Assembly: GCA_964442125.1 (NCBI GenBank)
Contig: CAYTWO010000006.1
Coordinates: forward strand, 1-42,515
Reading direction: 5' to 3'
DNA: 42,515 nt
Source: an uncultured Gemmatimonadota bacterium
GTDB lineage: Bacteria > Gemmatimonadota > CAZMKB01 > CAZNLH01
Shown here: positions 1 through 42,461 of the stretch, one piece after another
How the letters are laid out: each line of letters opens with the position of its first letter
Position numbering within the stretch: the stretch's first letter is position 1
Program-made: the position numbers and the translations under genes
Notes under the pieces: generated by a model
The model's input: the letters and a program-made list of their open reading frames with translations, nothing else
Database searches by the model: none
What the model was told of the DNA's origin: nothing

Positions 1-759
1 TTCCATTCCCTCCTCCGTCATCCACCCGACCTTACCGTCATCCAGGCGAATTTGAATCCACTCCCCTACTCTGTCAGTTATCTGCACTTTCGTCCCTCCA
101 TGGAGCAGGAAGGTGTCAGGTCCCTCACGATCAGGGGAGTTCTTCACCTCTACTACTTCGGAGATTACTATACCATAGGACTGACTCGACAGCCTGGAGG
201 TCCTGGCGATAACGAGGACGACCAGAAGGGCAACGACTATCGATGCGCCGGTTCCGGACAAGAGGCTGTAACGCCTGGTCCTGAAGCCGCTCTTGAGAGT
301 AAAAAAGAGAATGGAAGCCAGCATTACCAGGTATCCAATATATGCCAGGACTATCATGATCGAGACCGAAAGCGAATCGACCAGGATTTCCCAGTATCTC
401 TTTATTATCAGGCTCGGAACAGGCTCTATCCTGTCGACCGCCATCAACCTCGCCACATCCAGGTTATGAGCGACATCCTCATCGTCAGGTAACCATCGAA
501 GCGCCCTTTCGTAATTCAGAATAGCCCGGGCGATATCCCCCTGACGGTAATAAGCGTTCCCGAGGTTATAGAAGAGGGGACCAGACACATACCCGTCACC
601 TATCAATCGCTGGAATACCCGGATTGCATCGCCATAATTCCCCTGCTGGAAGGATGTATTCCCTTCCCGAAAGGCACTTTCAGCTTCATCCAGCGACTGC
701 GTTGGTAATAAGGGAAATACGTTCAGCAGGAGAAAAGACAAGACCAGTATTGCCTTCAT
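1..759 (-). CDS. batE: BatE-like TPR + SH3 domain membrane protein (C-terminus runs off the window)
   Basis: Absent from the ORF track. The minus frame is open from ATG 759-757 (overlapping the batD stop as ATGA) to base 1. That is 253 codons, and I checked by hand that there is no tta/cta/tca in the plus triplets. The translation begins MKAILVLSFLLLNVFPLLPTQS. It has TPR-like YNLGNAYYRQGDIARAILNYERAL, a TM stretch, and an SH3-like GTKVQITDRVGEWIQIRLDDGKVGWM. The position after batD matches the Bacteroides bat operon order. Confidence 0.6.
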   Translation of the reverse strand, partial: MKAILVLSFLLLNVFPLLPTQSLDEAESAFREGNTSFQQGNYGDAIRVFQRLIGDGYVSGPLFYNLGNAYYRQGDIARAILNYERALRWLPDDEDVAHNLDVARLMAVDRIEPVPSLIIKRYWEILVDSLSVSIMIVLAYIGYLVMLASILFFTLKSGFRTRRYSLLSGTGASIVVALLVVLVIARTSRLSSQSYGIVISEVVEVKNSPDREGPDTFLLHGGTKVQITDRVGEWIQIRLDDGKVGWMTEEGME

Positions 760-2588: not shown

Positions 2589-2589
2589 T

Positions 2590-3465
2590 TTACCAGTCCT
2601 TCTCCACTCGGACCCTTCCTCCTGGTTTTTCCCTGAGCTTTTTTTGAACCTCTCTCTCGTCTTCCCTCAGCGCCTGCAGGATCCTTTCCGCCTCTGACCG
2701 GGATATCCGCTCATCTTCAGGTTCAACAGGAGGACCTTCATCGGTACCCTGTTCGCTCTCATCCTTCTCACCCTGACCCGAAGACCCACCCTCCTCTTCA
2801 CTACCCTGATCACCCTCATCCCGGGATCTCTCCTGCTGCCCCCGCTCGTCATCTCCCTTTTCTTCGCCCTGTGACTGCTGATCCTGTCTGCTCTGCTGAT
2901 CTTCCATCTCTTCACGTTTTCTCATCGCATAGAGGAGGTTATATTTTGCGTCCAGGTCGTCAGGGTTTATTTTCAGTGATTCTATATACGACTGGATACT
3001 CTGATCGTACATCTGTTGTTTGAAAAGGGCGTTCCCACCGTTGAAAAAGGCCTTTGCAGCCATTTCATCGTCTTTTGAGACGGCAGCAGCCTTTTCGAAA
3101 GTACGGGTCGAGCCATCGAAATTTCCCTGCCTGTAAAGGGCGTCCCCCAGGTTGAAGCTCCCCTCCACAAGGTCTTTGTCTACCTCCAGGACCTTGCGGT
3201 ATTGCACCTCGGCTCCGGTGAAATCTTCCTCCTCATATGCCCTGTTCCCCTCCTTTATCAGGGAACGGGCAGACTGTGCCAGAAGAGAGCTCCATGGTGT
3301 GACCAACAGGGTCATCAATAGAGGTATAGCCAGGAACCTCATTCCTGAGGATTTATCGCGCATGCCCTTTGTCCTGATTTTACCCGGAACCTCGATAATA
3401 GTCTCCAACATGCCGCCCCCGTTTATTTCCTGTACACGATCCGTTTCTATTCCGTCTTCAGCCAC
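2590..3465 (-). CDS. batC: BatC-like TPR protein with acidic C-terminal tail
   Basis: TPR-like repeats (GNRAYEEEDFTGAEVQYRKVL, GDALYRQGNFDGSTRTFEKA, GNALFKQQMYDQSIQSYIESL) followed by a D/E/Q-rich tail. The true start may be an internal Met (MRFLAIPLLMTLL signal, near 3342). Confidence 0.7.
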   Translation of the reverse strand: MAEDGIETDRVQEINGGGMLETIIEVPGKIRTKGMRDKSSGMRFLAIPLLMTLLVTPWSSLLAQSARSLIKEGNRAYEEEDFTGAEVQYRKVLEVDKDLVEGSFNLGDALYRQGNFDGSTRTFEKAAAVSKDDEMAAKAFFNGGNALFKQQMYDQSIQSYIESLKINPDDLDAKYNLLYAMRKREEMEDQQSRQDQQSQGEEKGDDERGQQERSRDEGDQGSEEEGGSSGQGEKDESEQGTDEGPPVEPEDERISRSEAERILQALREDEREVQKKLREKPGGRVRVEKDW

Positions 3466-4487
3466 TTTTCAATCCACATAATTCGCCTCTCGGAAATCAG
3501 GAGCTCAACAAGGAGGAGAAGCAGACCGGCTGCAACGAAATATTGAAAGCGGCTTTCGTAGTCAGTAAACTGCTTCGTGCCGAACTCACGTTTCTCGAGC
3601 ACATTGATATCTTCGTAGATCTCGTTTAACTCATCCTGGGTGGTCGTTCCCTGAAAATACTTCCCCTTACCGTATGAGACCATCTTTTCCAGAGATAGAC
3701 GATCGAGCCGACTCATGACAACTTCACCCTTTCTATCTCTCTTGAAATCCACGCGTTGGCCCCTTGCGTCATAGATCGGTATAGGAGCCCCAGCTGATGA
3801 CCCCATTCCAATCACGTAAATAATTATGCCCTTACCGCTTGCCTCCTCGGCCGTCTCGAATATTTCACCTTCTGTGTTCTCGCCATCGGTAATAATGATG
3901 AGCACCTTGGTTGTCGACTCCTCGAAATCAAATGATTTCTCTGCCTGCTCAATGGCTCTCCCGATCGCTGTTCCCTGGACGGGAACGATATCCGTATCGA
4001 CAGCATCTATAAATAGTTCAGCAGCCGCGTAGTCTGTCGTAAGGGGGAACTGGGTGTACGCTTCACCCGCAAAAATGATCAATCCGATCCGGTCACCGGA
4101 AAAACGCTTGATAAGGTTCCGGATCTCCAGTCTGGCCTTTTCAAGCCTGTTTGGCCTGATATCCTCGGCCTTCATGCTGTTAGAAACATCGAGCGCGATG
4201 AAGATATCTACCCCCTCCAGCTTGACCTCTTCCAGCCTTGTTCCGATCTGGGGATTGGCCATGCCGATAAGGAGAATAACCATGCCTGCGATTAGCAGCA
4301 CAAACTTCCATAATGGTTTTGACCTGCTGGCCGTCCGGGAAAGTCGCCCGAGGAGATCCGGGTTCCCCAATCGTTTCACGGCACGCTTCTCCAACCTCCG
4401 GAAAAGCAGGTAGAAGACCACGAGAAGAGGCAGAGACATCAAGGCGTAGAGATATTCCGGATGAGCGAAACGCATCATCTCCGTCAT
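3447..4487 (-). CDS. batB: VWA domain protein, BatB-like
   Basis: N-terminal TM segments. VWA MIDAS motif (IFIALDVSNSM) and LIIITDGENT. Confidence 0.85.
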   Translation of the reverse strand: MTEMMRFAHPEYLYALMSLPLLVVFYLLFRRLEKRAVKRLGNPDLLGRLSRTASRSKPLWKFVLLIAGMVILLIGMANPQIGTRLEEVKLEGVDIFIALDVSNSMKAEDIRPNRLEKARLEIRNLIKRFSGDRIGLIIFAGEAYTQFPLTTDYAAAELFIDAVDTDIVPVQGTAIGRAIEQAEKSFDFEESTTKVLIIITDGENTEGEIFETAEEASGKGIIIYVIGMGSSAGAPIPIYDARGQRVDFKRDRKGEVVMSRLDRLSLEKMVSYGKGKYFQGTTTQDELNEIYEDINVLEKREFGTKQFTDYESRFQYFVAAGLLLLLVELLISERRIMWIEKWLKTE

Positions 4488-4521
4488 CGCAGAGGACCTC
4501 TCTCAGAAATGAATATCAGGT

Positions 4522-5520
4522 TCATGGTATTTTCCTGAACAACGTATTCGACAATCCAAACTCCAGCACCACGAGGAAGAGGGCAAGTCCGATCCAGCCA
4601 TAGAAAAGCTCCGCGTATTTCCTGTAGACACGTACCTCCATCTCCGTCTTCTCCAGCTCGTCGATCTCGGCATAAATGGCTTCAAGCTTCCTGTTATCGG
4701 TCGCCCGGTAGAACCTGCCTCTCGTCATTGCGGCTACTTTTTTGAGCGTCTCTTCATCTACCTCCACCGGGACGTTCTGATACCGGGTACCAAAGGGGGT
4801 TTGTACCGGATACGGAGCCGTTCCCATCGTTCCCACCCCCACCGTGTAGATCTTTATGCCGTAATTCCGTGCAATCTGTGTGGCGGTAAGCGGATCTATC
4901 TCACCGCGGTTGTTGACACCATCTGTAAGCAGGATCATCACCTTACTTTCAGCCTGGCTATCCTTGAGCCGGTTCACCCCGTTGGCGATGGCCATTCCTA
5001 TCGCGGTACCATCCTCGAGCAGGCCGCTTTTTACCCCGCTCAGCAACTCTTTAAGTACGCGGTAATCCATGGTCAGGGGGCACTGAGTGAAACTTTCTCC
5101 CGCAAAGACAACGAGCCCGATCCGATCGCTGATCCTCCCGTCGACGAATGACGCCGCTACAGATTTGGCCGCACCGATCCGATTGGGCTTGAAATCCTCG
5201 GCAAGCATGCTTCCGGATACGTCGAGAAGGAGCACGATATCTATCCCCTCTGTCGTGATCTCTTCGTCAATCGATACAGACTGTGGTCTGGCCAGGGCGA
5301 TTACGAGCACGCAAAGGGCAACCATGCGAAGTGAAAAGGTGAAATGACGGCCGCGCTCACGCCAGGTCTTCCTGATGTGCTGGAAAGGGGCAAGTGTGGG
5401 ATATCGATATTCACTCGTCCCCCTGTCATGACGCCATATATACCGGAATACGAGTACCGGGACGATCAGGAGGAGATAGAGAAACTCGGGATTCGCAAAG
5501 GTCACGTTATTCTGAAACAT
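4522..5520 (-). CDS. batA: VWA domain protein, BatA-like
   Basis: N-terminal FANPEFLYLLLIVPVLV. VWA MIDAS motif (IVLLLDVSGSM), MILLTDGVNN, and a C-terminal TM segment. Confidence 0.85.
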   Translation of the reverse strand: MFQNNVTFANPEFLYLLLIVPVLVFRYIWRHDRGTSEYRYPTLAPFQHIRKTWRERGRHFTFSLRMVALCVLVIALARPQSVSIDEEITTEGIDIVLLLDVSGSMLAEDFKPNRIGAAKSVAASFVDGRISDRIGLVVFAGESFTQCPLTMDYRVLKELLSGVKSGLLEDGTAIGMAIANGVNRLKDSQAESKVMILLTDGVNNRGEIDPLTATQIARNYGIKIYTVGVGTMGTAPYPVQTPFGTRYQNVPVEVDEETLKKVAAMTRGRFYRATDNRKLEAIYAEIDELEKTEMEVRVYRKYAELFYGWIGLALFLVVLEFGLSNTLFRKIP

Positions 5521-6517
5521 TTACCCTCACCTCCTGATCTTCCTGATCCGCCCGTTCATCTGCGACCTCGGCCGTATTTTCAACAACCGAAAATGCCAGC
5601 CTCAAAGTATCGGTGTTCTCATCGGGCAAGGGCTTGTATCTGGCGAATTTAACCAGGTCTGCCAGATTAAGCATCGATTCGAGATCACTTCTCGTCCCCG
5701 AAGGCATATCTATCGATTCTATATCATCCAGGATTTCATCTGTGGTCAGTTCCAGCGCTTGTATCCCGTACCGGCCATCGAGATATCCGCGAATGACCTC
5801 CGTGACCTCTGAATGGTAAGGCTTGATAAGTCCCTGTTGCCACAAACGTTTCTCCTCTATGATGTCCAACCTCTCTTTCGCGACGATATGAGGAGGTCTT
5901 GTCTCGATCACTTCTACAGGGGTTCGTTTTCTCCTCCCCCGCACTTTCAGGTACCTGAAGAGCAACCATGCAGCGACAATTATCGCGATGACAATGCCGA
6001 CCGGTGTCACCATTTCCTTCCAGGTCAATGCGAGACTCACCGGCTGCTTGATATCCTTGATATCGCGCGTGGTATCGACAGGGATAGAATGGATCACCAG
6101 GTCGATTGGAGAGGTCTCTATCTCCTTAAGAGTGGAGTCGCCCGGGAGGGAGTAAATAAACCTGAAGGGGGGTACGGTTACCTGACCGGTATCATAGGCA
6201 GCTATCCTGAAACCCGCTACCGATTCCTCTGTCGACAACCTGTGAACGGGATCCCTCTTGAGGACCAGTAGAGGACCGAGTGTGTCCCCTGTCAAAGACG
6301 TAAACGATGTCCCCTCCGGATGCTCGAGCCGCACCTCCACGTCGATCCAGTCACCTATCAGGTAGGCCGATGTATCGATCGATGCCTTGGCGGTAACGGG
6401 TCCTGACAAGCAGGAGACATCGGTTGAGTGTACCAGCAGAACCAGCAGGCCAAGCGGGCCGATGCGAACAAGAAATATTTTCAGGATTCGACTGATCTTG
6501 TCGGTAATGGCAACCAT
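5507..6517 (-). CDS. Bat-operon membrane protein of unknown function
   Basis: 336 aa ORF with an N-terminal hydrophobic segment and a central TM (VGIVIAIIVAAWLLF). It lies between the DUF58 and batA genes. No motif was recognised. Confidence 0.45.
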   Translation of the reverse strand: MVAITDKISRILKIFLVRIGPLGLLVLLVHSTDVSCLSGPVTAKASIDTSAYLIGDWIDVEVRLEHPEGTSFTSLTGDTLGPLLVLKRDPVHRLSTEESVAGFRIAAYDTGQVTVPPFRFIYSLPGDSTLKEIETSPIDLVIHSIPVDTTRDIKDIKQPVSLALTWKEMVTPVGIVIAIIVAAWLLFRYLKVRGRRKRTPVEVIETRPPHIVAKERLDIIEEKRLWQQGLIKPYHSEVTEVIRGYLDGRYGIQALELTTDEILDDIESIDMPSGTRSDLESMLNLADLVKFARYKPLPDENTDTLRLAFSVVENTAEVADERADQEDQEVRVNVSE

Positions 6518-6527
6518 ACCTTAATTC

Positions 6528-7406
6528 TCACCCAAGCCGGCGCTCTCGAAGACGGAAAAAATCTATGATCGGCTTGATATAGGGCCTGTCAACCGGGATG
6601 GTGATGTTGTCGATCCGGTTCCGGACCAGCAGCTTCCGGTATTTCCTGCGGTGTTCATTCCAGAATTCCCGGAAACTCTCCCTCACGCTTTCACTGCAGG
6701 TGTCGACCCACCGCTCTTCACTGCTCTCCGCATCGCGCAGTTTGACCAGACCCACTTCCGGCAGTTCCTCCTCCCTGGGATCGATAACCTCGACCGCAAT
6801 CAGGTCATGTTTACGGCTCAGGGTTCCGATAATCTTGTCATATCCCCAGTCCACGAAATCTGATACGAGGAATGCGATACATCTTTTGTTTATGACGTGA
6901 TTGAAGTATTCGAGCGCACCACGGATATCCGTTCCCACTCCTTCCGGCTCGAAGGAGACCAGCTCCCTGATTATGCGGAGGATATGCGCTCTTCCTTTTT
7001 TTGGCGGGACGAATTTTTCGATCCGGTCGGTGAAGAGGATCAATCCAACCTTGTCGTTGTTCTTGATCGCCGAGAACGCCAGCACAGCGCATATCTCGGT
7101 CGCTATTTCGTTCTTGAACTGTCGAACGGTACCGAATTCTCCGGAACGGCTGTAATCGACGATGAGCATAACGGTCAGTTCACGTTCCTCTTCGAAGACC
7201 TTCAGGTAGGGCTGGTCGAACCTCGCCGAAACCTTCCAGTCGATGTTTCTGACATCATCCCCGTACTGGTACTCCCGTACCTCCGAAAAATCGATCCCCA
7301 TCCCCTTGAAGACACTGTGGTACTCACCGGAAAAGACCTGATTTACGAGCCCCCGGGTCTTGAGTTCCACCATCCGGACCTTTTTCAGTATTTCACGTGT
7401 GTCCAT
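6528..7406 (-). CDS. DUF58 domain protein (MoxR-associated)
   Basis: Typical DUF58 N-terminus (VFSGEYHSVFKGMGIDFSEVREYQYGDDVRNIDWKVSAR). It lies immediately downstream of the moxR-type ATPase. Confidence 0.85.
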   Translation of the reverse strand: MDTREILKKVRMVELKTRGLVNQVFSGEYHSVFKGMGIDFSEVREYQYGDDVRNIDWKVSARFDQPYLKVFEEERELTVMLIVDYSRSGEFGTVRQFKNEIATEICAVLAFSAIKNNDKVGLILFTDRIEKFVPPKKGRAHILRIIRELVSFEPEGVGTDIRGALEYFNHVINKRCIAFLVSDFVDWGYDKIIGTLSRKHDLIAVEVIDPREEELPEVGLVKLRDAESSEERWVDTCSESVRESFREFWNEHRRKYRKLLVRNRIDNITIPVDRPYIKPIIDFFRLRERRLG

Positions 7407-7408
7407 TT

Positions 7409-8398
7409 TTAAGGGACTTCGATCTTGTTCAGGATATCGAGGACGAGCTGTTCAGGCGTCACCTCTTCGGCCTCCGCTTCATATGTCAAAGCTACGCGAT
7501 GCCTCAAGACATCCATGCATATTGCCCGGACGTCCTCCGGAATCACGTACCCCCGACGTTTGATGAACGCGAAGGCCTTTGCACCAAGCGCCAGATTGAT
7601 CGACGCGCGCGGTGAGGCGCCGTATTTGATCAGTTGTTTTTGGTCAGGGAGGCCGTACTTCGCCGGTTCTCTGGTGGCGAATACGATGTCGAGGATATAG
7701 CGCTCGATCTTTTCATCCATGTATATCTCCTGGACGACTTCCCGAGCCCGTATAATATCATCGGGTGACGCGACACGATTTGGCGGATCGGGCACCCCGC
7801 CAACGTTCCGGCGGAGTATCTCGAGCTCTTCTTCCTTGCTCGGATAATCGATCTTGACCTTCAGCATGAACCGGTCGATCTGAGCCTCCGGGAGCGGATA
7901 GGTCCCTTCCTGCTCGATCGGATTCTGCGTGGCCAGGACAAGAAACGGATCGGGGAGCAGGTAAGATTCCTCCCCGATCGTCACCTGACGTTCCTGCATA
8001 GACTCCAGGAGGGCGCTCTGCACCTTTGCCGGGGATCGGTTGATCTCATCTGCCAGGATGAAGTTGGCAAAGATCGGCCCTTTCCTGGTCTGGAATGAAC
8101 CGTCCCTGTGATTGTAGATCATCGTTCCGATCAGATCTGCGGGCAGAAGGTCGGGTGTGAACTGGATGCGCTGGAATTTCGCCCGGAATGTCGCGGCAAG
8201 CGAGTGAACGGCAAGTGTCTTTGCCAGTCCCGGGACTCCTTCCAGAAGAATATGCCCATTGGCCAGGAGACCAACCAGGAGCCGCTCGACCATCTCCTTC
8301 TGACCAACAATGACCTTCCCCATCTCCAGAAGGATGGCATCGACAAACGCGCTCTCTTTCTCGATCTTTTTGTTGATTTCTTGAATGTCCGTAGCCAT
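7409..8398 (-). CDS. moxR: MoxR-family AAA+ ATPase
   Basis: Walker A LLEGVPGLAKT and Walker B ILADEINR. Also VLATQNPIEQEGTYPLPEAQIDRF. Confidence 0.9.
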   Translation of the reverse strand: MATDIQEINKKIEKESAFVDAILLEMGKVIVGQKEMVERLLVGLLANGHILLEGVPGLAKTLAVHSLAATFRAKFQRIQFTPDLLPADLIGTMIYNHRDGSFQTRKGPIFANFILADEINRSPAKVQSALLESMQERQVTIGEESYLLPDPFLVLATQNPIEQEGTYPLPEAQIDRFMLKVKIDYPSKEEELEILRRNVGGVPDPPNRVASPDDIIRAREVVQEIYMDEKIERYILDIVFATREPAKYGLPDQKQLIKYGASPRASINLALGAKAFAFIKRRGYVIPEDVRAICMDVLRHRVALTYEAEAEEVTPEQLVLDILNKIEVP

Positions 8399-8456
8399 TG
8401 ATTCGATTAAACCTCCTTCGCTCTGTTCTCTCCCATCGGTTGATTTGCTTATACCT

Positions 8457-26078: not shown

Positions 26079-27647
26079 TCACCTCGCGTAATTTATAGAC
26101 CTGGTCTCCCGGATAACCGAGATTTTGATATGGCCGGGATATTCCAGCTCCCGCTCTATCTTTCTCGCGATTTCATTCGAAAGATGATCGGCGTTCGCAT
26201 CATCCAGCTCTCCTGGTTCGACGATTACACGAATCTCTCTTCCCGCCTGTATGGCATAGGACTTCTGGACCCCATCAAATGAATCTGCAAGCTCCTCGAG
26301 CTTTTCCAGACGCCTTATGTAGGTCTCAAAGGTCTCACGCCTCGCCCCTGGCCTGGCTCCGGACAGGGCATCGGCGGCCTGAACCAGGACCGCGATGGCT
26401 GATTTTGGTTCAGTATCATCGTGATGAGCATCTATCGCGTTAACAATAACCGGGTCCTCTTTGTATTTTTTGACCAATTCCACACCGAGCTGAACATGTG
26501 TCCCTTCACTCTCATGCGTCAATGATTTGCCAATGTCATGCAGGACCGCGGCTCTCCTCGCGAGTTTATCATCGAAACGGAGCTCTGTGGCCATCAGGCC
26601 CGCGATAATCGCTGATTCCTTCAAATGCTGGAGGACGTTCTGGCCATAGCTCGTACGGTATTTCAGCCGCCCGAGGAGGTAAATGAGCTCTGGATTGAGT
26701 CCGTGGATGCCGATCTCATACACGGCCTCTTCCCCGGTTTGCTGAATGATTTCGTCTATCTCCTTGCGGGCTTTTTCGACGACATCCTCGATTCGACCTG
26801 GATGAATTCTCCCGTCGGAAATGAGTTTTTCGAGGGCAATCCTCGCGGTTTCCCTGCGGATCGGGTCGAAAGCCGACAGGATAACGGCTTCAGGCGTATC
26901 GTCAATAATTACATTGACACCGGTCGCCATTTCAAAGGAACGGATGTTCCTTCCCTCCCTCCCGATGATCCGACCTTTCATTTCATCATTTGGCAGCGAG
27001 ACGACCGAAACCGTCGATTCCACAACCTGGTCTGCCGCGCATCTCTGTATCGCGTTGATGATAATCTTTTTGGCTTCCTTCTCAGCGATTCGTTTTGTTC
27101 TCTCTTTGATTTCCTTGAGTGTTTGGGATGCCTCCAGTCTGGCTTCTTCTTCAAGATTGCCTATGAGTTCCCGTTTCGCTTCATCAGCACTGAGTCTCGC
27201 TATTCTTTCCAATTTCCGGTTCTGTTCCTGGATCAACTGGGACAGGCGTGACTCCTTTGCTTTCAATGCCTTTTCCCTGCCGATAAATTCCTCGCCTTTC
27301 CGCCGTATTTCACGTTCCTTCTTCTCGATCAGATCGAACTTTTTGTTGAAGGTCGCTTCCTGTTCCTTGAACTTCCAATCCATCTCTTCGAGTTCTTTGC
27401 GTTTTGCTGAGGCCTCTTCCTCGAATTTGACCTTGGCCTTATAAAGGCTTTCCTTCATTTCAAGGGCAGCGGCCTTCTTTATGTTTTCTCCCTCACGCGT
27501 AGCGTCTTTAAGGGTCTTTTCAGCTTCCCTTTCCGCTTCTCGTAAGGCCTTCACGGCGATTTTCTTCCTCATTACAAAACCAAGTAAAAAACACAGACCC
27601 CCCGAGAGTAAAAGCACTAAGACAATAAAGACGGATTTCCCGATCAT
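26079..27647 (-). CDS. rny: ribonuclease Y
   Basis: N-terminal TM, a long K/E coiled coil, a KH domain ([12 protein letters not shown]) and an HD domain (LHDIGK). Confidence 0.95.
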
Positions 27648-27679: not shown

Positions 27680-27867
27680 AAAAAATCCCCGCACCCGGCG
27701 AGAGAAAAGAGATCTTTTGAACCTGACGCAATAGGGTGGGTATCATCCCGTTGGCATCTCGCTTCCCGTCTACGCGGGCATGCAGTCAAACAACGGAGAT
27801 AGATTCCCGGTCAGTTAGTGTTGGCTCAAAATTACTCTTTTCGCCACGCACAGAGCAGGGATTTTGT
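27680..27867 (-). ncRNA. ssrS: candidate 6S RNA
   Basis: A transcript of about 188 nt. The 5' end AAAAUCCCUGC pairs with the 3' end GCGGGGAUUUU. Further rod-like pairing follows: GGCGA/UCGCC, AAAGAG/CUCUUU, UUUUGA/UCAAAA and CUGAC/GUCAG. There are an unpaired central region and an apical CCCG-N6-CGGG hairpin. It has its own promoter at 27874-27902 and a terminal U-run. It lies immediately downstream of zapA, as ssrS does in E. coli. Confidence 0.6.
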
Positions 27868-35573: not shown

Positions 35574-35701
35574 CACATCGATGATTGCTGTTCTCAACGT
35601 CTGCCTATTTTCAGGGTCAGTTCATTGACATTATATGTGACTCCTTCTATTTTTTCCTTCGACCATTCTCCATCTTAAATAATATGACCGAGGTGAATAC
35701 A

Positions 35702-36508
35702 ATGAACCTATGGAAAACAACGATGCTCGCAGCCGTGACTCTTGCCCTGGGTTTCATCCTTGGAGGATCACGTGGTGAGGAACCGTATGGGGGTTCAATA
35801 GGTACAACGTTCCACGATGAGACCGAGCTCACTTTCGGCGAAGTTATCTCATCCGTTCTGAGATGGGGTGAGGAACCGAAAAAGGAAAAGTATTATGAAG
35901 GAGCGAGGGTGATCGACCTTCCAGATATGACTGCAGGCGACACAGGTGTCGAAGATGCAATCGCAAAGAGGAGGAGCGCGAGGAATTTCTCCAGGGGTTC
36001 TCTCTCGCTCCCTCAACTCTCCAGACTTCTGTACTCCTCATCGGGTATAACAGGGAAGAGTGGGAAAGATTCCGGTTTCAGAGCGGCACCTTCTGCTGGA
36101 GCGCTCTATCCGATCGAGACCTATGTCGTGGTCTTTGACGTCGACGGAATGGACCCCGGGATATACCATTATGTTCCTTCGAGGCACAAGCTGGAACTCG
36201 TCAGGGAGGGAAATTTCCATAACGATTTTATCTCGGCTGCTCTATATCAGGATATGGCCGGGAGGTGCGACCTGCTCTACGTGCTGACGGCGGTCTTCAG
36301 GAGGGTAACCTGGAAGTATGGCGATAGAGGATATCGTTATGCATATATCGAGGCAGGCGCCATATCCGAGAACATCTATCTTCAGGCGACCTCTCTCGGA
36401 CTGACTTCGGTTCTGATCGGGGCATTCTTCGATGACAAGGTATCAGAATTGATCGGAATCGATGGCAGAAAAGAAGCCCCTATTCTGCTGCACGCGGTGG
36501 GAACTTAG
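35702..36508 (+). CDS. SagB/ThcOx-type (nitroreductase superfamily) dehydrogenase with N-terminal TM/signal anchor
   Basis: RRSARNFS...LSLPQLSRLLYSSSGITG...FRAAPSAGALYPIETYVV...GIYHY.P is the SagB-type dehydrogenase signature. The N-terminus MNLWKTTMLAAVTLALGFILG is hydrophobic. Start at ATG 35702 after GAGGTG. Confidence 0.75.
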   Translation: MNLWKTTMLAAVTLALGFILGGSRGEEPYGGSIGTTFHDETELTFGEVISSVLRWGEEPKKEKYYEGARVIDLPDMTAGDTGVEDAIAKRRSARNFSRGSLSLPQLSRLLYSSSGITGKSGKDSGFRAAPSAGALYPIETYVVVFDVDGMDPGIYHYVPSRHKLELVREGNFHNDFISAALYQDMAGRCDLLYVLTAVFRRVTWKYGDRGYRYAYIEAGAISENIYLQATSLGLTSVLIGAFFDDKVSELIGIDGRKEAPILLHAVGT

Positions 36509-36514
36509 TTTAGT

Positions 36515-36715
36515 ATGAATGATGTCAGATATATTATCAGTTTCCTGTTGATCCTGTTCGTCTTTACAACAGGGATCGCCGGTTTGATCCAGGCGAAACT
36601 CGATCTTCATCACTTCCTCTACCACAGATACCTGGCATATGTTACACTTATTCTGAGTGCTCTCCACGTAGCTCTGAATTTTAAAAAACTATACCGTTAC
36701 CTGACCCGTCGTTAA
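36515..36715 (+). CDS. 66-aa two-TM, His-containing membrane protein
   Basis: Starts 6 nt after the SagB-type stop. Two hydrophobic helices (YIISFLLILFVFTTGIAGLI and YLAYVTLILSALHVALNF) carry H32, H33, H37 and H51. No family recognised. Confidence 0.45.
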   Translation: MNDVRYIISFLLILFVFTTGIAGLIQAKLDLHHFLYHRYLAYVTLILSALHVALNFKKLYRYLTRR

Positions 36716-37008
36716 TCAGGGACGACACAGAGACATTGCCAATCCTGGGAGTAATTGTTACAGCAGTCGAGCCAGCCTGGATACTGGGCGAGCCCCGGGA
36801 CTGAAGCTCCACCCCACCAGCAGATAAAAGCGGCACACAGGGGTAGATCACTGATCCAGGGGCACGGGTCGATGTTTCCGCACTGGCCAGTCTCCCAGCC
36901 GGGTAAAAAAACCATTCCGCAGTCAGAGCAGGCGTAACCGGACACATCCTTCCCACCTGACTTCTCTATACGTTTTGCGCTCCAGTTGATCGGCGTGAGA
37001 TGCTTCAT
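36712..37008 (-). CDS. Cys10/Trp7-rich small protein, paralog 1 (QhpC-like gamma-subunit / rSAM substrate candidate)
   Basis: 98 aa with an ATG start after GAGGGG. By hand alignment, 84/99 aligned positions are identical to paralog 2. All 10 Cys are conserved. Confidence 0.85.
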   Translation of the reverse strand: MKHLTPINWSAKRIEKSGGKDVSGYACSDCGMVFLPGWETGQCGNIDPCPWISDLPLCAAFICWWGGASVPGLAQYPGWLDCCNNYSQDWQCLCVVPD

Positions 37009-37170
37009 AATGAACCCCTCTTTCTGAACTTGAGTCGAGGGGTTTTATCATGAGAGGACTATTACAGGGGGTCTTTCACGAGGGGTTCACTGCGTAGTGT
37101 CACTGTTTACCAGCAGAGCTAACCATCGCTTGACAGATTTTCTATATCTCTTTAACTACATGACCCGTCA

Positions 37171-37323
37171 TCAGTCAGGGACCACGCAGAGACATTGCCA
37201 ATCCTGGGAGTAATTGTTGCAGCAGTCGAGCCGGTTCGGGTACTGGGCAACACCTTGGATCGATGCTCCACCCCAGGAGCAAATGAATGCGGTACATGCC
37301 GCTAGGTCTGCAGTCCAGGGACA
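37171..37323 (-). pseudogene. truncated, leaderless fourth copy of the Cys-rich gene (C-terminal half only)
   Basis: My translation of the minus frame ending at TGA 37173-37171 gives CPWTADLAACTAFICSWGGASIQGVAQYPNRLDCCNNYSQDWQCLCVVPD. Upstream, the frame has no ATG/GTG/TTG and no leader-like sequence before a stop at 37380-37378. Confidence 0.7.
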
Positions 37324-37373
37324 CCGCTCGTGATCTGGTCGACCTTCGAGTCCTTTGCAGGTACTCTTCCGTC

Positions 37374-37673
37374 TCAGTCAGGAACGACGCAGAGACACTG
37401 CCAATCCTGCGAGACATTGTTGCAGCAATCGAGCCAGCCAGGATACTGGGCAACTCCTGGAACCGACGTTCCGCCCCACCAGCAGATAAAAGAAGCACAC
37501 GCCGGGAGGTCTGAGGTCCAGGGACATGGATCGATGTTTCCGCACTGACCGGTCTCCCAGCCGGGTGCAAACATAGTCCCACAATCCGAGCAAGCATACC
37601 CGGACACATCGAGTTTAGATCCGGAACTTTCGATCCTCTTAGCTTTCCAGTTAAGGGGTTTGAGGTGTTTCAC
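37374..37673 (-). CDS. Cys10/Trp7-rich small protein, paralog 2
   Basis: 99 aa with a GTG start after GAAGGAGAG. Confidence 0.85.
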   Translation of the reverse strand: MKHLKPLNWKAKRIESSGSKLDVSGYACSDCGTMFAPGWETGQCGNIDPCPWTSDLPACASFICWWGGTSVPGVAQYPGWLDCCNNVSQDWQCLCVVPD

Positions 37674-37798
37674 TGTTCAACTCTCCTTCTCTATGCGTTT
37701 ATCCTTCTGTCCAGAACTCCCGGACGGATTTGATCACGATTCCCATATACCCGGCACTCACCTTCACAAAGGAGGGGATTTAGTTTACTATCGTGTCT

Positions 37799-38098
37799 CT
37801 AGTCAGGGACAACACAGAGACACTGAAAATCCTGCGAGACATTGTTGCAGCAGTCCATCCAGGCCGGATACTGGTTAATACCGGGGACCGAAGCCCCTGA
37901 CCACCAGCACGATGCCCAGTAGCAAGCGGGCAGATCAGCTGCCCAGGGACACGGGTCGATGTTCCCGCAGGCGCCTGTCTCCCAACCGGGTGCAAAACTC
38001 AATCCGCAGTCCGAGCAGGCATAACCGGACACGTCATTCTTCGAGCCCGAAGTCTCGATTCTTTTTGCCTTCCAATTGAGGGGTTTGAGGTGTTTCAA
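37799..38098 (-). CDS. Cys10/Trp7-rich small protein, paralog 3
   Basis: 99 aa with a TTG start after AAAGGAGAT, 35 nt after the propeller gene stop. 81/99 identical to paralog 2. Confidence 0.85.
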   Translation of the reverse strand: MKHLKPLNWKAKRIETSGSKNDVSGYACSDCGLSFAPGWETGACGNIDPCPWAADLPACYWASCWWSGASVPGINQYPAWMDCCNNVSQDFQCLCVVPD

Positions 38099-38133
38099 AA
38101 CAAGATCTCCTTTCCAATCTATTCACTCTTCAA

Positions 38134-39180
38134 TCATGAACCCGCGCGCGCTGCTTGGTCTTCTGTGTCCTCAACAAGATTATCCCGTACGGCAATCACG
38201 TTCAGTGGCGTCGGGACTTTGACCTCCCTGATCAGATTTCCCTGGGTGTCGACACATGTGATTTGACCCTCATCCTCTCCGGTGTCGGCCGAAAGGTAGA
38301 TCATATCCGCTTTACCGTTCAATGTGATCCACCTGTGTTTGACTCCGAGATCCGTTCTCGAGATCTCCTCCCCATTCGAATCCATGATAACCAGTTCTGT
38401 CAAGCCATTGGCGAAGATTCTCGATCCATCTGGAGAGGTTACCATGCCCTGTATCTTGACCTTTTCATCCAGGCAGGTCCTCTTCTTCTCTCCGGTATCT
38501 GGAAAATAGTGCCAGACACATGTTGGATTATTTTCGCCCTGCTCCAGAAGATAGAAGTCTGAACCACCCCCGGAAAAAGCGATATGGCGGAGGATCACCA
38601 TGCGTCCTTCCCACTGCCCGCCTTCTCCGAACCATAACTTCTCTGAACCCGCAAAATCATCTGTTGGGACCTTCATAACTTCTCTGCCAGCCATATGGGT
38701 GACGTAGATATTGTCTCCAGAAGGATCCAGGAAGATCTCGTACGTCCATGGTTCGAGGTAAAAATCTTCGAGTTGACTGTAGTCACCTCCCGACAGCTTG
38801 AGGATCTTATGGGGTCCGTTCGACATGTCCGGTCTGTCTCCAGGATGATGCAGGACATAGATCTGGTCTCTCGTTCCTTCATACCTTACCGAATCGAGAA
38901 TGCCGAGCGGAACCGTCTGAACAATCTCCATGATGGAGGTGTCCACGACGAGTAGCCCCCGTGTCGTCGCGAGAAAGAGTCTGCCATCTTCCGCCAGTTC
39001 CAGGCCATTTATCTGCGCCCCAACGGAGACCTTCTCGACGATCTCCCCCGAACCCATATCTATCACGAAGAGATCGTTCCATCCTGCGTAAACAATATCG
39101 CCTGATCCCCCGTGACGTGAACAGCCGGGAAGGAACATGATAGGAAGCAGCAAAATAAGAGCCGACTTAAATCTCCACAT
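38134..39180 (-). CDS. beta-propeller lipoprotein (YVTN-type repeats), QhpB-sized
   Basis: Lipobox MFLPGC at the N-terminus. Repeated ~40-aa blade-like units (DGRLFLATTRGLLVVD, GDNIYVTHMAG, DGSRIFANGLTELVIMD). 348 aa. Confidence 0.7.
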   Translation of the reverse strand: MWRFKSALILLLPIMFLPGCSRHGGSGDIVYAGWNDLFVIDMGSGEIVEKVSVGAQINGLELAEDGRLFLATTRGLLVVDTSIMEIVQTVPLGILDSVRYEGTRDQIYVLHHPGDRPDMSNGPHKILKLSGGDYSQLEDFYLEPWTYEIFLDPSGDNIYVTHMAGREVMKVPTDDFAGSEKLWFGEGGQWEGRMVILRHIAFSGGGSDFYLLEQGENNPTCVWHYFPDTGEKKRTCLDEKVKIQGMVTSPDGSRIFANGLTELVIMDSNGEEISRTDLGVKHRWITLNGKADMIYLSADTGEDEGQITCVDTQGNLIREVKVPTPLNVIAVRDNLVEDTEDQAARAGS

Positions 39181-39198
39181 CTCTGATCAACAACCCGA

Positions 39199-40221
39199 CT
39201 AATGGCCTACCGCGATGGTAAACGGAGACGCGTCCGGAACGAGGATCCTGTATAGAGGAGCGAGCGTTTTCGCGTTAAATATGGCCATGCTTCCGCCCGT
39301 ATCATAAACAGGATTGATCAGATAGAGTTTCTCGCCTCTATCACCGATTTCCATACCCTGGTAAGGTACATCAAGCGGTACCCAGCTGATCTCGGCTTCC
39401 TTTTCGAGATCGATGACAGACAGGAATCTGACCGCGTTCAGGTAGAGCTTTTTCCCGTCAGGGGAAAGGACCCCTCCACGCCACTTTGCTTCGTGATCCA
39501 GCGCAATCCTCCTCACGCTGTTTGTGGTCGTTTCGACAACCAGCACACCCGCCTGGTTTCCACCCTGCGCGATATAAATCTTGTTACTGTCTTTATCGCG
39601 GATCATCCGCCACAACATTCCCTGGTTCTGGTCTTTATGCTCGTACCCATAATCTCCAAGATCAAGGGTCTCGATCTGAGCACCGGACGTCAACTGAACG
39701 ATCTTCAGCTCGCTGTCGAGCAGGTCGAGGCAGTACAGGCGATCCTGCTCCGGGACGATTTCGATGTCGAACACCATCCGGTTCAGCTCGATCGTCCTCA
39801 ACAGTGTCTTACTGCTCAGGTCGTAGACCAGAAGTTTCGAGGGGAAGGCCTCAGCGGTTCCATCAGGCATCACTTTCCGGTCGTTCGTGAGGACGAACAT
39901 CCGGTTGCTTTCCTTCTCGATCTCAACCGTAAAAGCCGGCTTGTCCATCAAAAGTCCCTGGATCGTTCTCGTCTCGACATCGATGATATTGACCCCGTTG
40001 GATGCTCCGGCATAAACAGTTTTTCCGTCCGGAGAAACTGAAATGTTGTAGATCCACCTGTCGATCGGGATCTCCCCGGCTATCTTCCCGCTTTCCTCAT
40101 CGAGCACATAAAGTGTCGTGGCTCCCACGTACACTTCCGCTCCGTGAAGGTAAGTGGACTGGGCGAAGAACCCAGCGAGGGCAAGGGCAATCAACAATAT
40201 ACTGGCTATTTTCATCTTCAC
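39199..40221 (-). CDS. secreted beta-propeller protein (YVTN-type repeats), QhpB-sized
   Basis: Sec signal MKMKIASILLIALALAGFFAQS. Blade motifs VSPDGKTVYAGASNGVNIIDV, DSNKIYIAQGG and LSPDGKKLYLNA. 340 aa. Confidence 0.7.
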   Translation of the reverse strand: MKMKIASILLIALALAGFFAQSTYLHGAEVYVGATTLYVLDEESGKIAGEIPIDRWIYNISVSPDGKTVYAGASNGVNIIDVETRTIQGLLMDKPAFTVEIEKESNRMFVLTNDRKVMPDGTAEAFPSKLLVYDLSSKTLLRTIELNRMVFDIEIVPEQDRLYCLDLLDSELKIVQLTSGAQIETLDLGDYGYEHKDQNQGMLWRMIRDKDSNKIYIAQGGNQAGVLVVETTTNSVRRIALDHEAKWRGGVLSPDGKKLYLNAVRFLSVIDLEKEAEISWVPLDVPYQGMEIGDRGEKLYLINPVYDTGGSMAIFNAKTLAPLYRILVPDASPFTIAVGH

Positions 40222-40248
40222 TTTACTCCCTCCTTCTGAGTTCTTGAG

Positions 40249-40770
40249 TTATCTACTCTCTTTGTCCGATCCAACTTTGCTCAGGTCCTGCCGAGGTACA
40301 TCCGGCAACCAGTCGGGAGGAATCACGGCAATTGAAGACAGATCCCTCATGAGAACCCATCCCTCTCCCTCCCGGAAGTGTCGGTAAAACGCACCCACAA
40401 GACCTTCACCACAATCGATAGAGACCGCAGCCGTGAATACCCCGGTACGTCTATCAATGGTTCCGAGTTCTGGTCCCACCCTGGTCCCCCAGAATGCATT
40501 GACCGGCCCCACCAAGATGTCATCGCCACCACCGTCCTCCGGAATACCGTTTGGACCATTATTCCAGCCATTCGCCCTGAACCGCGCATAATATTGCGGT
40601 AAGCCAGTTCCCTGCAGCCTTGTACAAGGACCGGGAACACGGTTATTCCCAGGCGGTTCTACGATCTTGATGTAGTCAATTTCCTGGGAGCAGGCTTCGC
40701 TTGTGAACCCCATGAAAGCAATCATGTAGATTGCCAGAAACGCGATTGCCTTCCACTTGATAAATCTCAT
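40249..40770 (-). CDS. secreted 173-aa protein of unknown function
   Basis: N-terminal hydrophobic signal (AIAFLAIYMIAFMGFTSEA). No CxxCH and no motif I recognise. SD GGAGGAGGGG lies before the ATG. Confidence 0.6.
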   Translation of the reverse strand: MRFIKWKAIAFLAIYMIAFMGFTSEACSQEIDYIKIVEPPGNNRVPGPCTRLQGTGLPQYYARFRANGWNNGPNGIPEDGGGDDILVGPVNAFWGTRVGPELGTIDRRTGVFTAAVSIDCGEGLVGAFYRHFREGEGWVLMRDLSSIAVIPPDWLPDVPRQDLSKVGSDKESR

Positions 40771-40886
40771 GCCCCTCCTCCTTTCAGATAACAGCTCTGA
40801 GATGTTTGATACATCTCATTGACTCCATGCCAAGCAACCGATATACATCCTTTCCTTTGCTCGACGACAACCAACTTACTAAACGA

Positions 40887-42302
40887 TCAACAGGTGAGAT
40901 CCTCACCCGCACACATATCAAGGAATGCCGGATTCTGACGCATAAGGTCAAAATAGACATGTATACCAAACTCGTACCACTGCAGAAGGAGCTTACAGGT
41001 GAGCGCGTGAGGTTTTTTCAGGTCTCCGTTGTGGAGGTCTGAAAGGTAGTAACAACCACCGCCACAGAGATGCTTCGCCCAGCATGACCTGCAAGCCGGT
41101 TTTGAATCTACAAGGAGTGATCTTAACAGTTCCTCCCTCCTCCGGTCGTCTATCCCCTCCCTGAGGTTGCCTATCCGCAACTCCTCATTTCCTGAAAATC
41201 TGTGACAGATGTAGAAATCTCCCTCGGGCGAGGCGGCCATCAGCTTGAGCCCCGCTCCACAGGGAAGAGGTTTGGTATCACCCCGTTGAAGGAGCTTCAT
41301 CAAATTGATGATGTTGGTGAAACCGTAAACCTTCCCGGCAGAGGATTGTTCCTGAAACCGTCTGGCAAGGACCTTGAATCCATCGAGAAGCTGCCCCATC
41401 TCTCCTTCATCGAGGGCAAACTCCTCATTGACCGTATCGACAGGGGCCAGACCCACCTGTCTAAAACCGAGTCCGAGCAGGTGATCGACAACAGCGACGA
41501 CATCGATGTTGTTTTTCGTCAACGTTGCCCTGGCCGGTACCTGTCTTTCCTTCATTAATTTCGAGAGGTTGGATACCAGGAAATCGTATGAGCCTCGACC
41601 ATCAATGAATTTCCGGTGTTCATCATGTGCTTCTCTCGTACCATCTATGCTTATGGAAAGCTGGATGTTGTGTGAGTTTGAATAGCGGATTATATCTTCG
41701 GTGAGAAGTGTCCCGTTCGTTGTCAATGAAAAATCGATCTCTTTCCCGATTTCACCGGCCCTCTCCTCCCCCCTGCTGATAGCTGCCCGGACCGCCTCGA
41801 AGTTCATCAGGGGTTCCCCGCCGAAAAAGGTGATCATCACCTTATCGTCTTCCGTGCCGTCGAGAAGAAAATCAACGAGTTCCACGGCCACCTCTGGTTT
41901 CATGAGCTCTCTCTTCCCCCTGTAGCTCCCACCATCCGCGTAGCAATAACTGCAGGAGAGATTACAGGAGTGGGCGACATTCATCACAATATGTGAAACC
42001 TTCGGGAGTGGAACCTGGTTCCCGGAGCTTACATCCGCTTCAGTTCTCATCTCTTCCGAACCATTCGACACAAAACCAGCCTGTTCGAGCTCATCGATGG
42101 CGGTCTGAATCCTTGCTGCATCGAAGTCCCCTGAAAGTGTCTCGACCACACGCTCCCGTGTCGAGGGACTGTTTTTATCGAGGAACTCGAGGATTGAAAG
42201 GGATGTCGTATCGGGTTGAAAGATACCACATGTCTTGGTTGAAAACAGGATATCTTCCTGACCGTTCCTGAATCTCTTATATTTAATAGGTTTTAAGGGC
42301 AT
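40887..42302 (-). CDS. radical SAM / SPASM peptide-protein maturase (QhpD-like) with N-terminal RRE-like domain
   Basis: CNLSCSYC (CX3CX2C, codons at 41966-41943) and GGEPL. The full SPASM signature is C-x12-G-x4-C ... CRSCWAKHLCGGGC (CX2CX5CX3C) ... C. About 100 aa of winged-helix-like sequence precede the rSAM core (LSILEFLDKNSPSTRERVVETLSG...IDELEQAGFV). Confidence 0.85.
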   Translation of the reverse strand: MPLKPIKYKRFRNGQEDILFSTKTCGIFQPDTTSLSILEFLDKNSPSTRERVVETLSGDFDAARIQTAIDELEQAGFVSNGSEEMRTEADVSSGNQVPLPKVSHIVMNVAHSCNLSCSYCYADGGSYRGKRELMKPEVAVELVDFLLDGTEDDKVMITFFGGEPLMNFEAVRAAISRGEERAGEIGKEIDFSLTTNGTLLTEDIIRYSNSHNIQLSISIDGTREAHDEHRKFIDGRGSYDFLVSNLSKLMKERQVPARATLTKNNIDVVAVVDHLLGLGFRQVGLAPVDTVNEEFALDEGEMGQLLDGFKVLARRFQEQSSAGKVYGFTNIINLMKLLQRGDTKPLPCGAGLKLMAASPEGDFYICHRFSGNEELRIGNLREGIDDRRREELLRSLLVDSKPACRSCWAKHLCGGGCYYLSDLHNGDLKKPHALTCKLLLQWYEFGIHVYFDLMRQNPAFLDMCAGEDLTC

Positions 42303-42432: not shown

Positions 42433-42461
42433 AGTATACTACAGATCGCGGGATTTGTCAA
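42433..42461 (-). promoter_or_regulatory. near-consensus sigma70 promoter for the rSAM operon
   Basis: Minus strand TTGACA-17 nt-TATACT. The predicted start near 42426 gives a 5' UTR of about 120 nt before ATG 42302. Confidence 0.5.

Follow-up and report, generated by a model that had tools for sequence, protein, structure and literature searches.

A heme-less operon related to quinohemoprotein amine dehydrogenase in an uncultured Gemmatimonadota bacterium, and a candidate O2-independent route to its cofactor

The operon and its encoded proteins

Quinohemoprotein amine dehydrogenase (QHNDH) is a textbook case of an enzyme with a protein-derived cofactor and has, to our knowledge, been seen in a single architecture, which combines a diheme alpha subunit with a beta propeller and a gamma subunit that carries three cross-links. 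Here we describe a minus-strand operon at positions 36712-42302 of a 42,515-nt stretch of contig CAYTWO010000006.1 (assembly GCA_964442125.1, uncultured Gemmatimonadota bacterium), referred to throughout as the window. The open-reading-frame (ORF) reading of the window gives seven closely packed genes and a decayed fourth copy of a small gene that is otherwise present in triplicate. An initial annotation, made from the letters alone, had placed all ORFs of the operon at these same positions and offered two readings: a heme-less quinoprotein resembling QHNDH, or a new thioether family of ribosomally synthesised peptides that are modified post-translationally (RiPPs). Profile, Protein Data Bank (PDB) and neighbourhood tests favour the former. 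The encoded subunits are homologous to those of QHNDH and conserve the residues described below, and the operon probably, judging by these sequences, specifies a heme-less quinoprotein of the QHNDH family, namely its subunits and the maturase that cross-links it. Its features are as follows.

42433..42461 (-): promoter-like site TTGACA-17-TATACT, ~130 nt upstream of the maturase start codon, 11 of 12 consensus positions
40887..42302 (-): QhpD-like radical S-adenosylmethionine (rSAM)/SPASM maturase, 471 aa; TIGR03906, Radical_SAM, Fer4_12 and SPASM matches
40249..40770 (-): 173-aa truncated alpha subunit, QhpA domain IV only; PF09100, 1JJU_A
39199..40221 (-): propeller A, 340 aa, secreted, YVTN-type, predicted QhpB orthologue; TIGR03907, 1L0Q, 1JMX_B
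38134..39180 (-): propeller B, 348 aa, YVTN-type lipoprotein; generic propeller matches, lipobox
37799..38098 (-): gamma-like small subunit, copy 3, 99 aa, TTG start; NF037958, 51.6 bits
37374..37673 (-): gamma-like small subunit, copy 2, 99 aa, GTG start; NF037958, 51.7 bits
37171..37340, approximately (-): pseudogene, the decayed 3' remnant of a fourth small-subunit copy; matches the final ~165 nt of the other copies
36712..37008 (-): gamma-like small subunit, copy 1, 98 aa, ATG start; NF037958, 41.5 bits

The intergenic gaps, in gene order, measure 116, 27, 18, 35, 125 and 365 nt, with the remnant sitting in the last, and the G+C content of the operon is that of the remaining window. The promoter-like site named in the initial annotation is present, but its proposed role as a promoter is a matter of consensus match: the region holds eight such sites against 5.9 +/- 2.1 in shuffled sequence, which is no excess.

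The small proteins each contain exactly ten Cys and seven Trp. The suggested comparison with the QhpC model NF037958 (cut-off 50 bits) bore out their kinship, with the scores listed above; they also match Pfam QH-AmDH_gamma and align with the Paracoccus denitrificans gamma chain 1JJU_C over the whole core length (E = 3.3e-7). No match to the light chain of methylamine dehydrogenase (MADH) was obtained in Pfam, NCBIfam or the PDB. In the alignment with 1JJU_C, Cys59 corresponds to Cys37 and Cys64-Trp65-Trp66 to Cys41-Trp42-Trp43, while Cys31/Glu40 corresponds to Cys7/Glu16 and Cys50/Asp55 to Cys27/Asp33. The thioether pairs of QhpC, which we take from the 1JJU and 1JMX structures to be Cys7-Glu16, Cys27-Asp33 and Cys41-Asp49, are kept in two of three cases in the window's small subunits (Cys31/Glu40 and Cys50/Asp55). 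Asp33 of the known gamma subunit is the proposed catalytic base. Cys37 and Trp43 form the cysteine tryptophylquinone (CTQ) of QHNDH (PMC7876137). Across 23-24 family members, from canonical sequences to the architecture of the window (class 1, defined below), Asp55, Cys59, Cys64 and Trp66 are invariant and Cys31, Glu40 and Cys50 nearly so, and all Cys, Trp, Asp and Glu positions of copy 1 are common to copies 2 and 3. The N-terminal leader (MKHL+P+N.KA...) is likewise conserved from canonical clusters through class 1, with a cleavage site near residue 24 by alignment to the mature 1JJU chain. The kinship with QHNDH is not new, in that annotation pipelines already label the small protein: NCBI names the orthologue in a Glassbacteria genome 'quinohemoprotein amine dehydrogenase subunit gamma'.

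The additional cysteines follow distinct patterns. Cys28 and Cys44 are both found in all class-1 gamma sequences, and Cys84 and Cys95 in nearly all non-canonical gamma members. Cys83 and Cys93 covary in 24/24 sequences, both being present in ten and neither in L005, L022 (two class-1 loci introduced below) or any sequence outside class 1. Disulfides Cys28-Cys44, Cys83-Cys93 and Cys84-Cys95 are probable on these sequence patterns. A content of ten Cys therefore holds for the window's three copies but not as a fixed feature, since two relatives have eight, having lost Cys83/Cys93. Cys64, the equivalent of thioether Cys41 of QhpC, is invariant yet lacks its Asp partner; all other extra Cys can pair.

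The triplication is not a recent accident, because synonymous sites between the paralogues are saturated (dS, synonymous divergence, >1) and the pairwise ratio of non-synonymous to synonymous divergence (dN/dS) is 0.03-0.20, with copy 2 at 0.03-0.05 against the other copies; the three genes are old duplicates under purifying selection. The copies diverge chiefly at residues 53-54 and 60-63, beside the cofactor Cys. The decayed fourth copy reported in the initial annotation is real: ~165 nt align to the 3' half of the copies with frame-breaking changes. At its 3' end this remnant is nearest to copy 1; Trp codons and reading frame are gone, and neither a 5' half nor a start codon is retained.

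The rSAM protein has the QhpD maturase model TIGR03906 as its best family, at 388 bits over residues 8-463 (full length), as the initial annotation had suggested it might. The next models, PapB (308 bits; cut-off 340) and the SCIFF maturase (294; cut-off 425), follow at a distance, PapB trailing by 80 bits. Pfam matches comprise Radical_SAM, Fer4_12 and SPASM, with a faint PqqD-like match at residues 18-76, and a CX3CX2C motif and a SPASM CX2CX5CX3C motif are readable in the translation. The enzyme is predicted to install Cys-Glu and Cys-Asp thioethers in the small subunits. Its counterpart at the Glassbacteria locus carries only the NCBI label 'SPASM domain-containing protein'.

The 173-aa protein consists of an N-terminal hydrophobic helix, either a signal or an anchor, followed by one domain resembling QhpA domain IV. 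It scores 25.9 bits on Pfam PF09100 (threshold 25). A profile of six homologues has a sole PDB match, 1JJU_A residues 334-439 (E = 1.1e-9), and an AlphaFold model (predicted local distance difference test, pLDDT, 78.6) has a sole significant Foldseek match, again 1JJU_A (E = 2.5e-4, probability 1.0, 28% identity). The protein is a stand-alone copy of QhpA domain IV, and the alpha subunit is truncated rather than absent. The initial claim that no QhpA-like diheme subunit exists is correct for the heme domain and mistaken for the QhpA component: the diheme cytochrome c domain and domains II-III of alpha are missing from the window and domain IV is present. In keeping with the earlier observation, no CxxCH motif occurs in the operon proteins, nor do the window's open frames of 100 aa or more contain one; as a control, the QhpA of a bona fide cluster (L019, below) has two.

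Both propellers of the proposed duplication are present and are ~22% identical. Propeller A, with a signal-like N-terminus, weakly matches the QHNDH beta model TIGR03907 (E = 2.3e-12, 46.7 bits), and its profile retrieves 1L0Q (1.9e-21) and the QHNDH beta chain 1JMX_B (1.6e-6) from the PDB. The beta subunit of the bona fide L019 cluster itself reaches only 61.5 bits on TIGR03907. Propeller B has generic matches only (YncE, 1L0Q), so that the anticipated relationship to beta holds for A but not for B. Because the propeller of one-propeller loci always scores better on the propeller A profile than on the propeller B profile, A is identified by profile as the QhpB orthologue, and B as a class-1-specific addition. 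Propeller B is found in every class-1 locus and in no other related locus. Its N-terminus, MWRFKSALILLLPIMFLPGC, contains a lipobox (…FLPGC), and an L-x-G-C lipobox consensus is common to five propeller B homologues.

Related loci and their maturation genes

The family is rare. A word-indexed search of 5.8 billion proteins returned four relatives of the small protein from outside the window and ten of the 173-aa protein, and when 1.84 billion cluster representatives were searched exhaustively by profile, 29 QhpC-family proteins came up at E <= 0.001. Genome and metagenome scans with context look-ups gave ~20 distinct loci, which were mapped by tblastn and profile scans and are designated by L numbers. 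The window's own DNA is represented once more in public data: the sole public contig with its small protein (L015, JGI KVRMV2_100037439) is the same DNA and ends inside the rSAM gene, and an exact-sequence look-up found no record of the window's rSAM protein. Comparison of gene neighbourhoods, as had been suggested, showed the cassette recurring with QHNDH-type partner genes. Four architectures are distinguished.

Type (i), bona fide QHNDH: qhpA-D-C-B; L019
Type (ii): truncated alpha, gamma and one propeller; L003, L007, L017
Type (iii), class 1: rSAM, alpha domain IV, propellers A and B, one to three gamma; the window, L001, L002, L004, L005, L006/L016, L022
Type (iv): rSAM, gamma and one propeller, no alpha seen within the flanks; L008-L010

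The class-1 cassette (rSAM, alpha domain IV, propeller A, propeller B, one to three gamma) is found again in some ten metagenomic loci, with L001, L002, L004, L005, L006/L016 and L022 among them at 50-72% identity. L004 belongs to a metagenome-assembled genome (MAG) of Candidatus Glassbacteria and L005 to a Gemmatimonadota MAG. At L019, QhpA scores 524 bits (cut-off 274), QhpD 580 (453) and gamma 131 (50), and beta remains below its cut-off.

None of the heme-less loci encodes a c-type cytochrome, unannotated neighbours included, with the exception of an operon adjacent to L022. This operon (L022 13166-19659) resembles Alternative Complex III and starts 170 nt past the gamma gene. Its products are a pentaheme cytochrome, a molybdopterin-type Fe-S subunit, ActD and two NrfD-like proteins; a 7-heme cytochrome is encoded upstream of the cassette. 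These multiheme genes are probably unrelated neighbours, though they represent the only hemes near any heme-less locus.

Several loci show peculiarities of their own. At L017/L018 (6354-13677), a truncated alpha, two gamma and one propeller stand together with the U32 pair introduced below, an exporter and a protease; no rSAM gene lies within 10 kb on either side, and a NosD-like beta-helix protein is encoded just upstream. A conserved M28-family peptidase gene stands divergent beside the rSAM gene in L008 (3454-4740, -) and L010 (1589-2815, -). In L001, the closest relative of the window, the region 2126-5405 (-) upstream of the rSAM gene holds two BrxC/BrxD-like ATPase genes and a gene for an unassigned 287-aa protein; the maturation operon is not there.

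Genes resembling those for QhpE and QhpF, two maturation proteins of canonical QHNDH, recur around the cassette. In L004, L005 and L016, a divergent operon adjoins the cassette, with genes for a protein of 302-308 aa, a Peptidase_U32 protein of 347-349 aa, an ABC exporter and an S8 protease; the last has QhpE as its best family (NF049966, 116-128 bits; cut-off 165). We refer to the Peptidase_U32 protein as U32a and to its partner as U32b. In L008, L010 and L017 these genes come after those for gamma and beta, with no change of strand. In L022, a class-1 cassette with the window's layout on a 158-kb contig, the U32 pair, exporter and protease (L023) lie 11 kb upstream on the same strand. The statement of the initial annotation that QhpE, QhpF and QhpG are missing is true of the window but uninformative, because the window extends just 213 bp upstream of the rSAM gene; as L022 has its maturation genes 11 kb upstream, their absence here is expected. 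For the class as a whole the statement fails for QhpE and QhpF, as QhpE-like and QhpF-like genes accompany the cassette in relatives. A QhpG-like FAD monooxygenase was found neither in the gene tables nor in extra scans of any related locus. At L019/L020 (4382-11050), the bona fide qhpA-D-C-B cluster is followed by the same U32 pair. Within 10 kb no QhpE, QhpF, QhpG or other FAD monooxygenase is encoded. U32 and QHNDH are thus linked outside the heme-less branch as well.

U32a matches Pfam Peptidase_U32 (PF01136) with 118.6 bits (cut-off 22.4). Its best NCBIfam matches are TrhP and UbiU, at 55-95 bits and far under the cut-offs of 440-534. Seven Cys are invariant in U32a and four in U32b. The partner has no Pfam or NCBIfam match, and PDB sequence searches with U32a and the partner returned nothing. 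We do not claim U32b as a member of the U32 family, its profile comparison with U32a being weak. Six U32a homologues (31-70% identity) were looked up, and four lie in or near QhpC-type loci:

P0036: L016
P0039: L017
P0074: L019
P0048: L023

At L023 (5439-16706, JGI Ga0452208_000051), a single operon combines the U32 pair, the exporter and the QhpE-like protease with shikimate genes. These encode DAHP synthase, DHQ synthase, EPSP synthase, a fusion of shikimate kinase, dehydroquinase and shikimate dehydrogenase, and a fusion of chorismate synthase and chorismate mutase. All seven activities of the shikimate pathway and chorismate mutase are therefore covered, which amounts to a complete route to prephenate; the operon looks like a dedicated, private prephenate supply. 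Prephenate is the reported oxygen donor in anaerobic ubiquinone hydroxylation, for which UbiU and UbiV are needed, and these two proteins are reported to depend on prephenate for their function (PMC10990095). UbiU/UbiV, TrhP and RlhA are U32-family Fe-S proteins of O2-independent, prephenate-dependent hydroxylation (PMC6747719, PMC10990095); TrhP and RlhA are linked to O2-independent hydroxylation of RNA, and prephenate chemistry has been proposed for U32 proteins in general (PMC10990095).

A proposed pathway and its rivals

The following sequence of events would account for the genes. The three gamma precursors carry a ~24-residue leader (MKHLKPLNWKAKRIE...) that would be bound by the QhpD-like rSAM/SPASM enzyme, which would then form two thioethers, Cys31-Glu40 and Cys50-Asp55, the homology of these positions being established and the chemistry presumed. 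With Gly or Pro in place of its Asp acceptor, the third canonical thioether is not available in its usual form. Trp66 would be dihydroxylated and joined to Cys59 to give CTQ. The canonical enzyme of this dihydroxylation is the O2-dependent flavoprotein QhpG; in its stead, the U32 Fe-S protein and its partner may hydroxylate Trp66 with oxygen from prephenate. A QhpE-like subtilase would cut off the leader, and a QhpF-like ABC exporter would take the subunit to the periplasm, where it may assemble with the Sec-exported QhpA remnant, propeller A and the lipid-anchored propeller B. The quinone would oxidise a primary amine, with Asp55 (equivalent to Asp33) as the proposed catalytic base. Since no heme domain is present, the electrons would have to reach a separate acceptor. 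The two thioethers, the disulfides, periplasmic assembly, amine oxidation and the external acceptor are all steps that we infer. The window would then hold the structural half of a heme-less QHNDH branch, and, as a bolder and more tentative proposal to which we give somewhat less than even chances, CTQ would be made without O2 both in this branch and in some bona fide clusters, by U32a and its partner with prephenate as the oxygen donor, replacing QhpG.

Comparison with characterized systems places the operon closest to QHNDH of Paracoccus denitrificans and Pseudomonas putida (1JJU, 1JMX; PMC7876137). Both have the gamma leader, the CTQ Cys and Trp, the Asp33 equivalent and alpha domain IV; the thioether pairs are retained in two cases out of three, the maturase is an rSAM/SPASM enzyme closest to QhpD, and a beta-propeller partner is encoded. 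The window's relatives add the QhpE-like subtilase and ABC exporter. Unlike QHNDH, the window has neither the diheme domain nor alpha domains II-III; class 1 has a second, lipid-anchored propeller, one to three gamma paralogues instead of one, Gly or Pro for the third acceptor Asp, a loop longer by one residue and four to six extra Cys; and the related loci have a U32 Fe-S pair in the cluster where QhpG, seen in none of them, would be expected.

The tryptophan tryptophylquinone (TTQ) dehydrogenases (MauA/MauB and aromatic amine dehydrogenase) are heme-less periplasmic enzymes. They combine a small, Cys-rich and disulfide-stapled subunit bearing a Trp-derived quinone with a 7-bladed propeller, and amicyanin or azurin, as a separate soluble carrier, receives their electrons. 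They offer a working model for electron disposal by a heme-less QHNDH relative. Similarity between MADH and the window is that of propellers in general (heavy-chain model 17 bits, E = 0.0016; PDB E ~0.3-0.8), and membership in the MADH/TTQ family is rejected on the profile scores. MADH also differs in that TTQ is made by the diheme enzyme MauG, without an rSAM-cross-linked precursor, and in that its small subunit has a signal sequence in place of the RiPP-like leader seen here. The comparison with UbiU/UbiV, TrhP and RlhA holds for the related loci only, no U32 gene lying inside the window. There, U32a shares the Peptidase_U32 domain, the occurrence of paired proteins and the conserved Cys clusters; the proposed substrate is a protein tryptophan, as against a quinone precursor or an RNA base for UbiU/UbiV and TrhP.

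Two other accounts of the operon as a whole were weighed. In one, which we regard as very improbable, the 98-99-aa proteins are precursors of large thioether peptides, ranthipeptide- or sactipeptide-like, which would be made by the rSAM enzyme, trimmed by a protease, exported by an ABC transporter and secreted free, with the propellers in immunity or accessory roles. The rSAM enzyme does score well on PapB and the SCIFF maturase, the small proteins weakly match the Cys-rich RiPP model TIGR04118 (18-27 bits; cut-off 35), and the operon shares with ranthipeptide and SCIFF systems (PapB, ScfB) the rSAM/SPASM clade, a Cys-rich substrate with a leader, multi-copy precursor genes of the kind typical of RiPP clusters and, in its relatives, a protease and an ABC exporter. 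All three models remain under their cut-offs, however, and QhpD, the best family of the rSAM enzyme, scores higher, which tells against the new thioether family put forward in the initial annotation. The substrate here is a 75-residue homologue of an enzyme subunit encoded with its partner subunits: the core is homologous to QHNDH gamma over its whole length, cofactor Cys and Trp included, and homologues of alpha domain IV and beta are always co-encoded. Leader, protease and exporter also occur in canonical QHNDH (PMC7876137) and so do not discriminate. As the primary explanation, a RiPP system is rejected on account of the homologues of all three enzyme subunits in the operon. According to the other account, unlikely but less so, a periplasmic complex derived from QHNDH has lost its quinone and Trp hydroxylase, and the small subunit serves as a thioether- and disulfide-stapled scaffold for binding, sensing or thiol redox chemistry. 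The loss of the heme domain and of one thioether acceptor, the gain of four to six Cys, and the absence of QhpG and U32 genes from the window, L001 and L002 would all suit such a complex. Against it, Trp66, Cys59 and Asp55 are invariant in all copies and relatives despite synonymous saturation, and the U32/exporter/protease operon adjoins the cassette in L004, L005 and L016 and lies 11 kb from it in the closest long-contig relative.

The preferred reading, a heme-less quinoprotein, and the more tentative U32-dependent maturation must be set against a number of observations that weigh against one or the other. The maturase lies below the TIGR03906 equivalog cut-off (453 bits), and propeller A below that of TIGR03907 (223 bits). 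Cys64 of the third thioether is kept, but the equivalent of its acceptor Asp49 is Pro or Gly, all class-1 gamma sequences having SVPG where other family members have QVPD, and, compared with the solved structures, the loop from the cofactor Cys to the CWW motif has one extra residue; by these sequence differences, the cofactor environment departs from that of solved QHNDH. Quinone presence itself is inferred from conserved residues only, and an AlphaFold model of the small subunit from a 7-sequence alignment has a pLDDT of 33 and gives no disulfide pairing. The operon encodes no electron acceptor. Genes for a hydroxylase, a protease or an exporter are likewise missing from the window, which extends 213 bp upstream of the rSAM gene. 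As to the U32 pair, the profile comparison of U32b with U32a gives an hhalign probability of only 42%, and the remaining two of the six U32a homologues (31% and 36% identity) are located away from any QhpC gene (L021, L025). In vitro reconstitution of a U32 hydroxylase has never been achieved (PMC10990095).

The role of the U32 pair was graded separately, as a non-hydroxylase function concerns the U32 layer only and is compatible with the quinoprotein reading. U32a and its partner could take part in leader processing, as a peptidase or a chaperone, or could belong to an unrelated pathway encoded nearby, with the oxygens supplied by an unlinked QhpG-like or MauG-like enzyme; we hold this to be rather unlikely, though less so than either account above. 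U32 was originally set up as a family of peptidases, U32 pairs are also seen in unrelated contexts, in vitro activity has been shown for no member (PMC10990095), and only a handful of loci have been examined. On the other side, a QhpE-like leader peptidase already stands beside the pair. Seven or more independent loci have the pair co-operonic with QhpC-type genes, among them the bona fide L019, which has no QhpG nearby, and in L023 the pair shares its operon with a complete pathway of prephenate supply. Its conserved Cys patterns, moreover, resemble the Fe-S motifs of UbiU and UbiV reportedly described by Pelosi et al. in 2019.

In agreement with the impression that this architecture had not been recognized before, no description of it was found in the searched literature, outside which most subscription journals lie. 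Within that scope, the reduction of alpha to domain IV, the duplicated propeller, the gamma paralogues with altered cross-links and the U32 pair that systematically takes the place of QhpG appear to be new; no paper ties U32, UbiU or prephenate to tryptophylquinone or a quinohemoprotein, and nothing relevant on QHNDH in anaerobes was encountered. The family now forms a series from full alpha-beta-gamma through truncated alpha with beta and gamma, and truncated alpha with two propellers and gamma paralogues, to apparently beta and gamma alone. Because the family is seen in such a series of forms, the catalytic gamma/beta core is separable from the built-in cytochrome, which raises the question of the external electron carrier. 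The varying cross-links, two thioethers together with covarying Cys pairs, constitute a natural test of the substrate rules of QhpD-type enzymes. All routes to a tryptophylquinone that we know of use O2 or H2O2. If the proposed biogenesis is true, it would represent the first route to a tryptophan-derived quinone cofactor that needs no O2, and the U32 hydroxylase family would gain its first protein substrate; prephenate chemistry would extend from lipids and RNA to proteins, and this aspect would be new in kind. U32 proteins, recurrently found in place of QhpG, would thereby offer a testable route for tryptophylquinone cofactors in anoxic habitats.

Neighbouring genes and other features of the window

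Two plus-strand genes run convergently towards the last small-subunit gene and share 4 nt with its 3' end.

35585-36508 (+): membrane-anchored SagB-type nitroreductase-family protein (TIGR03605, 155 bits; cut-off 78)
36515-36715 (+): 66-aa His-rich two-helix membrane protein

In L002, too, the small gene is followed by this tight convergent pair (62-63% identity), which no other related locus has. The pair may be a redox partner or a mere coincidence.

Elsewhere in the window, three further features were recorded.

27682-27864 (-): 6S RNA gene (Rfam RF00013, 73.9 bits)
26079-27647: RNase Y-like gene, beside the 6S RNA gene
756-8400 (-): BatA-BatD-type aerotolerance operon (BatD, VWA/BatA domains)

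The other genes of the window are housekeeping genes (glycogen synthase, RecN, DXS, IspA, XseA, FolD, pheST, infC, thrS), and no partner genes were seen among them. The synteny of thrS-infC-pheST is common to the window and L001.

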